DNA of 64,000 nt, taken from the NCBI RefSeq assembly GCF_058153355.1, contig NZ_CM177019.1; one strand, written 5' to 3'. Within the stretch, counting starts at the first letter, position 1; every line of letters begins with the position of its first letter. Position numbers and translations under genes: made by a program. Positions 17,600-28,856 of the stretch are shown one piece after another. Below the pieces are notes generated by a model, which had not been told where the DNA came from, searched no databases, and was given only the letters and a program-made list of their open reading frames with translations.

Positions 17600-18481
17600 T
17601 TAATTCTTACGACCGGTAATGCGGCACCACTCTTCTTTTTCCACGACCGGGTCCAGAGCGAAGCTGTCGGCATAAGCTTCACAAACGCTCTCTGCCTGGC
17701 TTGCCAGAATACCGGAAAGGCCCAGCAAGCCACCTGAAACCGGCAGGACGCTGATTAACGGTGCCAGTTCACGTAATGGGCCTGCAAGGATGTTAGCGAC
17801 CACCACGTCGGCTTTCATTTCTTCTGGCTGATCTTTAGGTAGGTAGAGTTCCAGACGGTCAGAAACGCCATTACGTTCGGCGTTGTCGCGGCTGGCCTGA
17901 ATCGCCTGCGGATCAATATCAATACCAATGGCTTTTGCTGCACCCAGTTTCAGCGCCGCGATAGCCAGAATGCCGGAACCACAGCCAAAGTCGATGACCG
18001 TTTTACCGGTTAAATCGAGGCTGTCGAGCCATTGCAGGCACAGAGAGGTGGTTGGATGAGTCCCTGTACCAAACGCCAGACCTGGGTCTAACATTACGTT
18101 GACGGCGTTTTCGTCCGGCACATCACGCCAGCTTGGGCAGATCCACAGTCGTTCACCAAAGCGCATCGGGTGGAAATTATCCATCCATTCGCGCTCCCAG
18201 TCTTTATCTTCCAGTTGTTCGATTTTATGCGCAAAGCCCGCGCCGAGCAGAGGATGGTTTTCCAGAATTGCCACCACGTCGTTCATATCGGTTTCAGCGT
18301 CGAACAGACCAATCACATCGGTGTCGCCCCACAGGCGCGTTTCGCCCGGCAGCGGCTCAAACACAGGCGTATCGTGGGTATCCTGAAAAGTGATAGAAAC
18401 GGCACCCGCTTCCATCAGCGCATCGCTAAGATCTTCCGCGTTCGCGCCGGTAGTGTTCAGTTTCAGTTGGATCCAAGGCAT
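17600..18481 (-). CDS. prmA: Ribosomal protein L11 methyltransferase
   Basis: 293 aa, AdoMet motif [18 protein letters not shown]. Confidence 0.95.
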
Positions 18482-18492
18482 GGCAAAACTCT

Positions 18493-19944
18493 TTATTTAT
18501 CAGTAGTCAAAACGGTAGCTTGCGGGACGGATGTACCGAAACGGTTTCCGACCAGGAAAGCCAGCAAACTTAGCAGCAACGAGGGCACGATAGGGTGGAA
18601 GCCCAGGTACTGAATATTCAGCGTCGCGAGTACGGCATACAGTACGCCGCCAACGATCATCGCACTTAGCGCGCCTTTGGCGTTGGCGCGTTCCCAGTAA
18701 AGACCCAGCACCAGCGGCCACAGGAAAACGGCTTCCAGCCCACCGAAGGCCAGCAAATTCAGCCAGATGATCATTTCTGGCGGCTTCCAGGCGGCAAGCA
18801 GCAGCAACGCACCGAGAACCAACGTGATCACCGCCGACATCCGCTTCAGACGCGTCTCGTTTTGCATTTGATCCGGACGGATATTCAGATAGAGATCTTT
18901 AATGATCGTAGCGGAACTTTGCAGCAACTGGGCATTGATCGTCGACATGATCGCAGCCATAGGTGCAGCCAGGAAGATCCCGGCAGCAAACGGTGGCAGC
19001 ACTTTTACCATCAACGTCGGGATCACCAGGTCCGGTACGGTGAGATCGGGGATCACCGCCCGACCTAACGCTCCGGCCAGGTGCATACCGAACATCAGGA
19101 TTGCGACCACAATCGTACCGATGATGATCCCCCGATGTACGGCTTTGCTGTCTTTATAAGAGATACAGCGCACCGCAGTATGCGGCAGGCCAATCACGCC
19201 AAAACACACCAGCACCCAGAACGACGTCATAAACGCAGGTGACAGAATATCGTCAGCGCCTTGTGGCGTAACCAGTTGCGGATCGATGGTTTGCAGCGTC
19301 TCTACCGCATTGCTTAAGCCGCCAGCAGCATGGACCACGCCAATAAGCAGCACAATGGTGCCAATCAGCATCACCAGCCCTTGCATGGTGTCGTTCAGCA
19401 CGCTGGCGCGAAAGCCGCCAAAGGCGGTGTAGAGCGCAATGCTGATGCCAAAAATCAGCAAACCTGTTTCATAAGGGATACCCGCCGCGGTTTCCAGCAG
19501 GCGCGCACCGCCGATAAACTGCACGGTCATCGCACCAACGAACGCAACCAGCAAACTCAAACTCGCCAGCCACACCAGCAGGCGACTCTGGTAGCGGGCA
19601 AACAGCATATCGTTCAGCGTCACCGCATTGTAGCGGCGCGCGAGAATCGCGAACTTCTTGCCGAGAATACCGAGCGAAAGCCAGACCGCAGGTAGCTGAA
19701 TCATTGCCAGCAATACCCAACCCAGGCCGTATTTATAAGCAGCTCCTGGCCCGCCGATAAACGAACTGGCACTGATATAGGTCGCGGTGAGCGTCATCGC
19801 CAGCACAATACCGCCCATAGAGCGGCTACCGAGGAAATACTCATTAAGGAAGGTGCCGGTGCTCCGTTTACGCATCGCATAAACAGAGATACCGAACACC
19901 ACCACCAGATAGGCGACCAGCGGTAGAATCACTTCAAGCTGCAT
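18493..19944 (-). CDS. panF: Sodium/pantothenate symporter
   Basis: SSS-family multi-TM protein; start set at second ATG (SD GGAGG 6 nt upstream), 483 aa. Confidence 0.93.
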
Positions 19945-20176
19945 CGTCATCCTCCAGTGGGATATCGCGATAGATAAATTTCACCATCGCCCAGCACAGT
20001 CCAATAAACAGCAGCGGCGTCAGGATGCAAGCCATCTCAAACCAGCGTGGAAAGCCGGTAAAACCGGGGGTAACGCCAGGTAAGTAAGCGGATACTAACC
20101 ATACCGCCAGATACAAAAGGGTCAGCCCCAGCGCCCAGCGCGCCTCTTTATGGGCCTGAACAAAACGAGTGTCCAC
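19934..20176 (-). CDS. yhdT: Small membrane protein YhdT (cotranscribed with panF)
   Basis: 80 aa from GTG start preceded by AGGAGG at 9 nt spacing; overlaps panF start by 11 nt. Confidence 0.8.
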   Translation of the reverse strand: MDTRFVQAHKEARWALGLTLLYLAVWLVSAYLPGVTPGFTGFPRWFEMACILTPLLFIGLCWAMVKFIYRDIPLEDDDAA

Positions 20177-20268
20177 GGAAGGGGTCCTCCTCATGGGGGG
20201 ATACGAGAAACGGGCAATTCTACGGCAACTCTTCAGGCAGGGAAAATAATCTGACAGAAAATTGCCGT

Positions 20269-21225
20269 TCAGTGCTGCTGCAAAAAGTCTTCAATGTCAG
20301 TCAGTGAGGATATCCCTTCCATCGGACCTTGCCGCATTACCGCGAGCGCGCCGCTGGCATTTGCATATTGCAGCGCCTTGTGTGCCGGGATACCGGATAA
20401 GAAAAGAGTGACAAACGTTGCGCCAAAGCAGTCGCCTGCACCCGTTGGATCGATTATTTCGATATCGTGGCCTGCAACATGCTTGGCGTGTAATGTTCCG
20501 TTTTTAATCTTGTAATAGCTGGCCCCACGCTGGGCGCGTTTTATCGCCACATGTTTTACGCCGCCGTGGAGAAGATCGCTAACAATCTGTTCTTCTGACA
20601 GATTTTTGTGACGCGCGAAGAAAGGGAGTTCGCTTTCGCTGGGGATAAAAATATCCGTATATTCAATCAAATAATCGAGAGCCTGCGCCATTTCAGGAAT
20701 ACTCAGCATCTCTTTGCGAATATTGGGATCGAAAGAAACGGTGCCGCCAGCCGATTTGATCGTCGTTATTGCTTTACGCATGACATCGATCATGCGAAAT
20801 GAGAACAATGATGAGCCCACAATATGCAGATGGTTACACTGTTTTAGCAGATCCTTATCAATGTGCTCGGCAGTAAACAAACCGCAGGCGCTGTTAGGGA
20901 TATTAAAGACGAAATCCCGCTGCTGGGGATTTTGATAACTCACGAATGCCGTACCTGTTACGGCATTGTTCATAACATGGATCCCATCGGTAATGACACC
21001 TTCATGACGGAGGCGCTCTATAATGAGTCGGCCAAAATCATCATTACCAACACATCCGAAGAAGATGGCCCGATGGGACAGTTTTGCCACCTGAGCAGCA
21101 AAAATTGCTGGTGCACCGCTGGGAAATGGCCCGATAAACTCCCCAGGCTGAGTGAATTTTTGATGTGGGTTGCGGGACAAAAACTCGGCCAGCAATTCGC
21201 CCATAGCGCAGATAGTTATTGTCAC
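20269..21225 (-). CDS. PfkB-family sugar kinase (island kinase 1)
   Basis: C-terminal DPTGAGDCFGATF and N-terminal GxxxGGAP-like PSGAPAIF motifs; paralogous to ORF 26760-27722; start set at GTG 21225 (GAGG 6 nt upstream; aligns with N-terminus of paralog) instead of ORF-track 21279. Confidence 0.8.
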   Translation of the reverse strand: MTITICAMGELLAEFLSRNPHQKFTQPGEFIGPFPSGAPAIFAAQVAKLSHRAIFFGCVGNDDFGRLIIERLRHEGVITDGIHVMNNAVTGTAFVSYQNPQQRDFVFNIPNSACGLFTAEHIDKDLLKQCNHLHIVGSSLFSFRMIDVMRKAITTIKSAGGTVSFDPNIRKEMLSIPEMAQALDYLIEYTDIFIPSESELPFFARHKNLSEEQIVSDLLHGGVKHVAIKRAQRGASYYKIKNGTLHAKHVAGHDIEIIDPTGAGDCFGATFVTLFLSGIPAHKALQYANASGALAVMRQGPMEGISSLTDIEDFLQQH

Positions 21226-21235
21226 AAAACCCCTC

Positions 21236-22066
21236 TCATTCCTGAAGCCTTTCGCGATTGGACCAGGTAAAGCACTCATTACTGGTATAAAGGATAACGA
21301 AATCAGCCGACTGCAATTGTTGCTGATATTGTTCGTTAATGCTGCGGCTGACGATCACATTTTCTGCCTGATGCAAATGCCCGATAGCAGCCGTTGATGG
21401 CGCAGGATCGGCGGCAACGATAACTGTCTTATTCTGGGCATGATCGAAACAGAGCTGCCAGGCAGCGGCAAGTCTGGGAACGTTGATATTTAAAGTACCA
21501 TCAGCATCCAGATGGCTGATTTCCAGAATGCTGTGTGTAATGGTGAAATGCTGAAGTGCCTGTTCGAGCGGTTTTCCGGCCAGTGCGGTGTCGGGGCGCA
21601 GCATTTCACTGCCAGCCAGTATTATTTCGCCATCAATAAACTGATTTGCCAGCAGCGCATGTTCGGGATCGTTGGTGATCAGACGCAGTTTTTTCACTTC
21701 GCTGAGCAATGGAATGATCTTACGGCAGATTGTCCCATGTCCAAGAAATAGCGTGTCACGATCCCGAATTAACCGTGCGCAATGTCGTGCTATTTCCATT
21801 TGTTGTGCCAGAGACAATGGCGCGATCGGTTGTATCGCTTCTGGTTCAGAGGAGAGTGGTGTCGCAATAGCACCGCCAAATGATCGCTTTAAATATCCCT
21901 GTTGCTCCAGATAACTGAGATCGCCGCGGATCGTCACGCCAGAGACACCAAGTTGCGCAGATAAGTCATCAACTTTGATTTCACCCTGGGCGGCAACAAT
22001 TTCTGCAATTTTTAATCTGCGTTTCAGTAGGTTAGACGATTTTCTCGGCACGTTAACACTCTTCAT
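21236..22066 (-). CDS. DeoR-family transcriptional regulator
   Basis: 276 aa; N-terminal HTH RRLKIAEIVAAQGEIKVDDLSAQLGVSGVTIRGDLSYLEQQGYLKR typical of DeoR/GlpR/AgaR, C-terminal sugar-phosphate sensor domain; stop is 10 nt before kinase 1 start. Confidence 0.85.
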   Translation of the reverse strand: MKSVNVPRKSSNLLKRRLKIAEIVAAQGEIKVDDLSAQLGVSGVTIRGDLSYLEQQGYLKRSFGGAIATPLSSEPEAIQPIAPLSLAQQMEIARHCARLIRDRDTLFLGHGTICRKIIPLLSEVKKLRLITNDPEHALLANQFIDGEIILAGSEMLRPDTALAGKPLEQALQHFTITHSILEISHLDADGTLNINVPRLAAAWQLCFDHAQNKTVIVAADPAPSTAAIGHLHQAENVIVSRSINEQYQQQLQSADFVILYTSNECFTWSNRERLQE

Positions 22067-22239
22067 TGGCCTTTAATGCGTAACACTATAGCCCCTTGTA
22101 TTTTTCTTTGAAAGTTACCCTTCAATAATATCGACAATTCGAAAATAAAAGCATAGGGCAAAAATTGCAGCAAAAATAGCTTAATGCATTGAAAATAAAT
22201 GAATATTTCCATATCTGTCCAAAGGCATCATTGGTTTCA

Positions 22240-22254
22240 TTTTCAAAGTGAAAA
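22240..22254. promoter_or_regulatory. Candidate operator palindrome TTTTCA-AAG-TGAAAA
   Basis: Perfect 6-3-6 inverted repeat in divergent intergenic region between DeoR gene and aldolase operon. Confidence 0.4.
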
Positions 22255-22337
22255 ATAAATTAAGTTATTTTTTGTAAGTTATTTTGATGATATTCGACAT
22301 GCGTCACGCTTTTTACCGCTTTTGCTGTGCTAGTTTG

Positions 22338-22352
22338 CTTTCAAAATGAAAG
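22338..22352. promoter_or_regulatory. Candidate operator palindrome CTTTCA-AAA-TGAAAG
   Basis: Perfect 6-3-6 inverted repeat about 55 bp upstream of aldolase ATG; related copy ttcattttgtaaggtgaa at 22368-22385. Confidence 0.4.
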
Positions 22353-22379
22353 TGAAGATTCTCTTTCTTCATTTTGTAA

Positions 22380-23261
<882 letters not shown>

Positions 23262-26759: not shown

Positions 26760-27722
26760 ATGAGTAAGGTCTTCACAATTGGAGAAATTCTTGTTGAAAT
26801 TATGGCGAGTAAAATCGGCCAGCCATTTGATCAACCAGGTATCTGGAACGGCCCTTATCCCAGTGGTGCGCCCGCTATTTTTATCGACCAGGTGACACGT
26901 CTTGGCGTTCCGTGCGGCATCATTAGCTGTGTGGGGAATGATGGCTTTGGTGATATTAATATACATCGTTTGGCTGCTGATGGTGTGGATATCAGGGGGA
27001 TTTCAGTCTTACCTCTGGAAGCCACCGGTAGCGCCTTTGTTACTTATCATAACTCTGGCGATCGTGATTTTATTTTTAATATCAAGAATGCCGCTTGCGG
27101 TAAATTATCGGCGCAGCATGTTGATGAAAATATTCTGAAGGACTGTACCCATTTTCATATTATGGGTTCATCCCTGTTTTCATTCCATATGGTAGACGCA
27201 GTAAAGAAAGCGGTAACCATTGTAAAGGAGAATGGTGGCGTTATTTCTTTCGACCCTAATATTCGGAAAGAGATGCTCGATATTCCAGAAATGCGTGACG
27301 CCCTCCACTTTGTTCTTGAGTTAACAGATATCTATATGCCCAGCGAGGGAGAAGTGTTGCTCTTGTCGCCACACTCGACACCGGAGCGTGCAATCGCTGG
27401 TTTTCTTGAAGAAGGTGTTAAAGAGGTGATTGTGAAGCGCGGCAATCAAGGTGCCAGTTACTACTCCGCGAATGAGCAGTTTCATGTTGAGAGCTATCCG
27501 GTGGATGAAGTTGACCCGACCGGTGCGGGAGACTGCTTTGGTGGCGCGTGGATTGCCTGCCGCCAGCTAGGGTTTGACGCCCATCGGGCATTACAATATG
27601 CCAACGCCTGCGGTGCACTGGCGGTAACCCGACGTGGCCCAATGGAGGGAACGTCTCGCCTTGCGGAAATCGAAGCGTTCATCCAGCGCCATGACATGTC
27701 CATTCGGGAAGCAGCACAATGA
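26760..27722 (+). CDS. PfkB-family sugar kinase (island kinase 2)
   Basis: 320 aa; DPTGAGDCFGGAW anion-hole motif, PSGAPAIF N-terminal motif; paralog of kinase 1. Confidence 0.82.
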   Translation: MSKVFTIGEILVEIMASKIGQPFDQPGIWNGPYPSGAPAIFIDQVTRLGVPCGIISCVGNDGFGDINIHRLAADGVDIRGISVLPLEATGSAFVTYHNSGDRDFIFNIKNAACGKLSAQHVDENILKDCTHFHIMGSSLFSFHMVDAVKKAVTIVKENGGVISFDPNIRKEMLDIPEMRDALHFVLELTDIYMPSEGEVLLLSPHSTPERAIAGFLEEGVKEVIVKRGNQGASYYSANEQFHVESYPVDEVDPTGAGDCFGGAWIACRQLGFDAHRALQYANACGALAVTRRGPMEGTSRLAEIEAFIQRHDMSIREAAQ

Positions 27723-28765: not shown

Positions 28766-28775
28766 TTAACGGTAA

Positions 28776-28810
28776 TAAAAACGCCGGGCAGCCTTAACAG
28801 GCCCGGCGTT
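28776..28810. terminator. Bidirectional hairpin between convergent island operon and accC
   Basis: Perfect 10 bp stem aacgccgggc/gcccggcgtt with 11 nt loop; T-run on minus-strand side (accC terminator), A-run on plus side. Confidence 0.7.
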
Positions 28811-28856
28811 AATTACGTTCTTTGCTAAGCGCGATGAAAACACCGCGCGACACAAA

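Follow-up and report, generated by a model that had tools for sequence, protein, structure and literature searches.

The 92-bp spacer that separates tagK from yhdT in E. coli genomes carrying a D-tagatose island is probably the promoter and leader region of the yhdT-panF-prmA operon, located directly after tagK. We analysed it within a stretch of 64,000 nucleotides of contig NZ_CM177019.1 (assembly GCF_058153355.1), hereafter the window, and its features are collected in Table 1. Since the spacer appears to contain a deeply conserved promoter core belonging to the operon, we regard the tagK-yhdT junction as ordinary, with no rewiring of the operon. Promoters kept beside insertion points, as well as operon ends that lack intrinsic terminators, are commonplace in E. 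coli.

On the minus strand, the TGA stop of tagK occupies 20271-20269 and the GTG start of yhdT 20176-20174, so that the two same-strand genes are exactly 92 bp apart. RefSeq annotates the same layout (DeoR regulator, sugar kinase, 92 bp, yhdT with GTG, panF, prmA) in an E. coli genome of 99.4% identity, and the distance given in the preliminary description, which had a 'kinase 1' ending 92 bp upstream of the yhdT GTG on the same strand, is therefore exact. The spacer is thus short, with yhdT translation beginning at its end. For tagK we follow the RefSeq start; its longest open reading frame begins further out, at 21279.

Table 1. Features of the tagK-yhdT junction and its surroundings, in window coordinates
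Feature	Position	Strand	Remarks
prmA, ribosomal protein L11 methyltransferase	17600..18481	-	last gene of the downstream unit
panF, sodium/pantothenate symporter	18493..19944	-	overlaps the end of yhdT
yhdT, DUF997/YhdT family	19934..20176	-	80 aa, GTG start
Small hairpin, Shine-Dalgarno pairing with the start codon (CCAUG.AGGAGG...CCUUCCGUGG)	20173..20196	-	-12 kcal/mol
tagK-yhdT spacer	20177..20268	-	92 bp
Shine-Dalgarno of yhdT, GAGGAGG	20186..20192	-	9 nt before GTG
Invariant 18-nt block, TTGCCGTAGAATTGCCCG	20211..20228	-	-10-like TAGAAT (20222-20217), then C/G-rich stretch
Inverted-repeat hairpin, ACGGCAAUUUU...AAGAGUUGCCGU	20222..20268	-	3' untranslated part of the tagRK transcript, no U-tract
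Invariant TTTTCCC, candidate weak -35	20240..20246	-	upstream of the block
tagK, second island sugar kinase ('kinase 1' of the preliminary description)	20269..21204	-	start as in RefSeq
tagR, DeoR-family repressor	21236..22066	-	first gene of the tagR-tagK 'reg' operon; open reading frames, RefSeq, published naming
Preg promoter, TTCAAA-16-TATAGT	22085..22112	-	consensus scan; hexamers and spacing equal to published Preg
Strong hairpin with U-run between convergent accC and tagE	28775..28812	.	z = -5.5

This island has already been described as the D-tagatose locus of E. coli Nissle, in which the kinase is tagK and the DeoR gene is tagR. According to two reports on Nissle 1917 (Ha et al. 2022, PMC9720028; Park et al. 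2025, PMC12226905), the tag locus consists of the catabolic and transport genes tagYABCDE and a divergent 'reg' pair, tagR-tagK, located between accC and yhdT. The gene order of the window (accC, tagEDCBAY, tagR tagK, yhdT panF prmA) agrees with this: the eight genes, the insertion site and the Preg hexamers are the same, the TagR operator sequences in the tagR-tagY spacer are alike, and the Nissle spacer is 98.6% identical to that of the window over a 211-nt query spanning the gap. The island was found in 1421 of 5426 complete E. coli genomes (roughly one quarter), and the spacer is present at 98% identity or higher in every one of these; carriers belong mostly to phylogroup B2 (PMC9720028). 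The two Nissle papers leave the tagK-yhdT spacer, the termination of tagRK and the expression of yhdT-panF undiscussed (PMC9720028, PMC12226905), and no account of how the spacer is transcribed came up in literature searches on yhdT, panF, promoter and tagatose. The function of tagK is called unexplored in the later report (PMC12226905). tagK has a paralogous kinase in the island, tagD (26760-27722), with which it shares about 50% amino-acid identity.

Scanning one genome per species with the TagK protein, we searched for tagK genes that lie next to yhdT. The arrangement tagR-tagK-yhdT-panF is not confined to E. coli: besides Escherichia, two Trabulsiella species, Klebsiella spallanzanii, Superficieibacter and Serratia sp. 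H1w have it. The gap measures 96 bp in both Trabulsiella odontotermitis and T. guamensis and 98 bp in K. spallanzanii, and it is expanded to 282 bp in Superficieibacter electus (L006, 4937-5218) and to 378 bp in Serratia sp. H1w (L010, 4937-5314). yhdT also directly follows tagK in Enterobacter sp. ENT03, at a gap of about 88 bp, in a locus that ends within the first yhdT codons. Six sequences representing three genera were formally aligned, and Enterobacter sp. ENT03 was compared separately.

All 18 columns of the block TTGCCGTAGAATTGCCCG are invariant in the six aligned sequences, and the block is unchanged in Enterobacter sp. ENT03 as well, so that E. coli, Trabulsiella, K. spallanzanii and this Enterobacter share it base for base. 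In the short-gap forms it is preceded by TTTTCCC at a fixed spacing, with 11 variable nucleotides in between. To appreciate this conservation, we note that invariant third-codon positions in these six sequences amount to no more than 15% in tagK, 25% in panF and 37% in yhdT, whereas second codon positions of the flanking genes are 81-92% invariant. The invariance of the block against such variable third positions implies purifying selection as strong as that acting on positions that determine amino acids.

The block has the appearance of a promoter core. Its TAGAAT hexamer matches TATAAT in five of six bases, including the A at position 2 and the T at position 6, and three overlapping -35 candidates lie upstream, each with three of six matches: TTTCCC (17 nt from the -10), TTTTCC (18 nt) or TTCCCT. 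The candidate promoter thus scores 8 of 12, and a site of this quality (5/6 plus 3/6) is expected by chance in about 6-11% of 92-nt stretches. Because this consensus score is modest, the case for a promoter rests on conservation and positional homology. A consensus scan of the gap passed over the candidate. We infer that the block is an active promoter from which sigma-70 RNA polymerase most likely starts near 20211-20209, giving a predicted 5' leader of about 34 nt with the strong Shine-Dalgarno GAGGAGG and the GTG start; yhdT-panF-prmA would then be driven by a promoter of its own within the spacer. As for published start-site maps, yhdT, panF and b3257 were not found in the supplements of Kim 2012, and the site at prmA -87 was the only relevant one among the entries listed from Mendoza-Vargas 2009. 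A CRP-like half-site noticed by eye, TGTCA (about 20256-20252), was discarded as too weak and wrongly spaced.

The positional homology becomes evident when genomes devoid of the island are included. In the nine examined, accC lies directly upstream of yhdT: E. coli K-12, Salmonella, Enterobacter, Klebsiella variicola, Intestinirhabdus, Cronobacter, [Enterobacter] lignolyticus, Serratia plymuthica and Yersinia ruckeri. A TA[ACG]AAT hexamer is found 30-48 nt before the yhdT start codon in each of the 18 anchored upstream regions. In all nine island-free genera, K-12 included, the hexamer reads TACAAT or TAAAAT and is followed by a C/G-rich stretch, and the near-invariant block is 22 nt long, reaching about 15 nt past the hexamer. 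The block reads GGTACAATCCCCGCTTTCTTCA in the island-free Enterobacteriaceae, TGCCGTAAAATCCCCTACC in Yersinia and Serratia, and TTGCCGTAGAATTGCCCGTTTC in the island type, which has TTGCCGTA-AAT in common with Yersinia and CCCG..TTTCT in common with K-12. The equivalent site of Serratia sp. H1w, TTGGCA-16-TAAAAT, matches the sigma-70 consensus in 10 of 12 bases. Judged from these alignments, the spacer block represents the form taken in the island haplotype by an element that precedes yhdT throughout the Enterobacterales. The form of this element (a -10-like hexamer, a C/G-rich stretch, and a leader of some 30-45 nt with a Shine-Dalgarno) is that of a promoter core.

The C/G-rich stretch after the -10 is itself strongly conserved, as CCCCGC or TGCCCG, in all 18 yhdT upstream regions (20211-20216 in the window). 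C/G-rich sequences of this kind typify promoters that respond to growth rate or to the stringent response. We may speculate that such sensitivity would suit an operon that contains prmA and lies just upstream of dusB-fis.

We also considered that the block might mainly serve a purpose other than initiation, as the binding site of a regulator or as an element of the mRNA leader, with its resemblance to a -10 being secondary. The 18 invariant bases, like the 22-nt block of the island-free genomes, exceed what sigma-70 contacts at a -10 alone would need, so an additional or different role is conceivable, and a direct repeat TTGCC-N6-TTGCC places its two copies one helical turn apart. We nevertheless find this quite unlikely: the TTGCC repeat is missing from the island-free versions, and the only feature common to all 18 sequences is TA[ACG]AAT at its fixed place. 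Nor does the region resemble a TagR operator or a known RNA family; an Rfam 15 scan of 19800-22500 gave just two chance-level snoRNA matches, one eukaryotic and one archaeal, whose 21 and 15.3 bits fall well short of the gathering score of 45. Moreover, a regulator site overlying a promoter would add to the promoter function proposed here and would not replace it.

Does the spacer still contain the native yhdT promoter? In K-12 the accC-yhdT intergenic region is 108 bp long and comprises a strong terminator, GGCCGGAUUUUCCGGCC followed by U6, and GGTACAATCCCCGCTTTCTTCACCCATCAGGGACAAAAA before the ATG. Megablast similarity between the window and island-free genomes starts only at the second base of the yhdT start codon, and on the accC side window and K-12 diverge right after the accC stop codon; these two codons are the haplotype boundaries. 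The flanking genes differ from K-12 uniformly, by about 3%, with no rise toward the yhdT or accC junctions. At first the whole intergenic region therefore seems to have been replaced, and for the -35 area and the terminator this is indeed the case: the upstream part of the K-12 region (CTGGGGA...) is absent from the window, and where K-12 has a strong accC terminator insulating the operon from upstream, the window has tagK without a terminator. However, the two regions share TA[ACG]AAT, CCCG..TTTCT, a leader of 30-40 nt and a Shine-Dalgarno, and their downstream genes are alike, panF overlapping yhdT in both. K-12 differs here in having TACAAT, 31 nt to the start codon and ATG, whereas the window has TAGAAT, 40 nt and GTG. 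The downstream regions of more distant tagK homologues, at loci away from yhdT, bear no similarity to the gap, so the island-borne part of the spacer cannot be delimited from them.

These comparisons bear on the idea that the junction is a passive one, at which the island removed the native promoter and left yhdT-panF-prmA to be expressed mainly by read-through from the tagR-tagK promoter. It would account for a gap without a canonical terminator, for homology to K-12 that begins only at the yhdT start codon, for the missing K-12 accC terminator and CTGGGGA region, and for a candidate promoter that reaches only 8 of 12. On the other hand, it would leave the selection on 18 nucleotides, conserved far above silent sites, unexplained, and the invariant -10-like block is homologous to that of all the island-free genera; we therefore hold such a passive junction to be unlikely. 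The suggestion of the preliminary description that the island had displaced the native yhdT promoter is likewise not supported, since the invariant TAGAAT block corresponds in position and sequence to the TACAAT/TAAAAT block in every island-free genus examined, and the window departs from the island-free type only upstream of the -10, in the -35 area and the former accC terminator. Because the promoter core stands before yhdT across the Enterobacterales, the island did not remove the -10 and leader: by homology, these native elements are retained and not displaced.

We were not able to find a terminator-like site at 20177-20268 by consensus scan. The gap offers neither of the features by which intrinsic terminators are recognised, a G+C-rich stem of five or more pairs closed by a loop of just 3-8 nt, and a run of U directly after the stem. 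What it does contain is an inverted repeat with perfect 7-nt arms, ACGGCAA (20268-20262) and TTGCCGT (20228-20222), separated by 33 nt; the 3' arm is made up of the first seven bases of the conserved promoter block. The pairing extends to an 11-pair stem by an A/U-rich extension, and the stem is followed by AGAAUUGC (AGAAUUGCCCGUUUCUCG), not by a U-tract. The preliminary description had called this a weak long-loop inverted repeat and had seen no clear terminator; the scan and the lack of a U-tract bear out the second statement, while 'weak' does not hold for the hairpin on its own, since a 55-nt segment picked to contain it folds at -15.7 kcal/mol (z = -3.0). Like intrinsic terminators, the E. 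coli hairpin forms a stable stem-loop that follows the stop codon immediately; unlike them, it has a long interior of 33 nt, no U-tract and no conservation.

One could accordingly imagine that this hairpin (20268-20222) is a partial or factor-assisted terminator, or a stabiliser of the tagR-tagK 3' end, and that the two transcription units are largely insulated from each other. In addition to its stability when folded alone, structures in two relatives would fit. In Trabulsiella odontotermitis (L005 4923-4950; L007 and L011 agree) the tagK stop codon lies within a different element, a 7-pair hairpin with UUUUUU after it. This could plausibly serve as a weak terminator, and E. coli has no such element at the corresponding position. 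The spacer of Serratia sp. H1w contains GGCCGG-U7 (GGCCGGUUUUUUU) just upstream of the promoter, placed like the accC terminator of island-free genomes. But in a 131-nt context the E. coli hairpin is unremarkable (z = -0.85), the 55-nt segment having been chosen to suit it, and AGAAUUGC takes the place of a U-tract. The pairing is also lost when the six aligned sequences of three genera are folded to a consensus, and Enterobacter sp. ENT03, folded separately, has no comparable hairpin (z = +0.84). We consider termination or 3'-end protection by this hairpin very unlikely.

K. spallanzanii likewise has no comparable terminator-like structure after tagK. At more distant tagK homologues elsewhere, inspection by eye often shows a sequence resembling a hairpin plus T-run after the gene. 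The terminator-less state is thus real for E. coli, but it is not shared by all and shows no obvious sign of selection. In Serratia sp. H1w the spacer also contains inverted repeats of the CCCTCTCCC/GGGAGAGGG type, which resemble repetitive extragenic elements.

At the far side of the island the situation is different: the strong hairpin between the convergent accC and tagE is followed by UUUUU (UUUUUAUU) and stands in for the K-12 accC terminator, so that transcription of accBC would be blocked there. The accC-tagE spacer (28766-28856) has only the TTTTTATTAC tail in common with the K-12 accC terminator, implying that the island haplotype possesses a different accBC terminator.

With no canonical intrinsic terminator between tagK and yhdT, read-through from the tagR-tagK unit is physically plausible. 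Its source would be Preg, a mapped and nearly constitutive promoter whose start site was placed by dRNA-seq 11 nt before tagR (PMC12226905). Since nothing recognisable stops the polymerase after tagK, Preg transcripts probably continue into yhdT-panF-prmA, which would give the operon a second, nearly constitutive input on top of its own promoter. The same source states that dRNA-seq revealed only two start sites 'within the 8.5 kb region' (PMC12226905). Between the stop codons of tagK and tagE we count 8,497 bp, which matches this figure, and we therefore take the statement as leaving the 92-bp spacer outside.

The preliminary description had further proposed that such read-through would link pantothenate uptake to island regulation. 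On tagatose, tagR-tagK rise only about 2-fold by qRT-PCR, while tagYABCDE rise about 40- to more than 1000-fold, according to the two reports (PMC9720028, PMC12226905). No site resembling a TagR operator was found in the gap: with 3 mismatches allowed, the 19-mers tagO1 and tagO2 gave four matches in the 64 kb, all at 22230-22380, where the tagR-tagY spacer contains an exact tagO2 match and a tagO1 match with 2 mismatches (22338-22380). Given the 2-fold range of tagRK and a spacer devoid of TagR operators, any coupling would be small, and the proposed link is weak at most. It is improbable that the lost insulation is functional, in the sense that Preg read-through materially feeds yhdT-panF-prmA in a tagatose- or TagR-responsive manner and so rewires pantothenate uptake and L11 methylation. 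If it were, it might act together with the hairpin that pairs the ribosome-binding site of yhdT with its start codon.

This small hairpin appears in the consensus fold of the three genera, Trabulsiella and K. spallanzanii included, with almost no covariation, and its stability is at the level of shuffled sequence (z = -0.29). In the folding model it could damp the translation of yhdT and, by coupling, of panF. Island-bearing E. coli start yhdT with GTG and K-12 with ATG, and both are found in Trabulsiella; the difference fits the pairing in the hairpin, which would be U-G or U-A. In island-type sequences the Shine-Dalgarno reads GA(A/G)GAGG or GGAAGA. Another ATG in frame, 18 nt further upstream (20192-20194), would yield an 86-aa open reading frame, as called in some databases. 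We rejected it as the true start; it has no Shine-Dalgarno, K. spallanzanii has ATA in its place, and in Enterobacter sp. ENT03 it falls out of frame.

The tag island, its genes and Preg are already published; what we add is only a specific and conserved candidate promoter of yhdT, together with the observation that tagRK appears to have no terminator, and the significance beyond annotation is small. The cross-genus alignment provides a testable position for the poorly documented promoter of yhdT. When this locus is engineered, or when RNA-seq data covering it are read, transcripts running from tagK into yhdT-panF-prmA are to be expected. Vanet and colleagues reportedly described the co-transcription of panF and prmA in 1993 (in J Bacteriol).

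A genome labelled E. coli, that of E69 (L003, CP089930.1), differs from the window by about 5% in the DNA of panF-prmA, compared with about 3% for K-12. Its spacer is that of the window except for two substitutions, both of which fall outside the conserved blocks.
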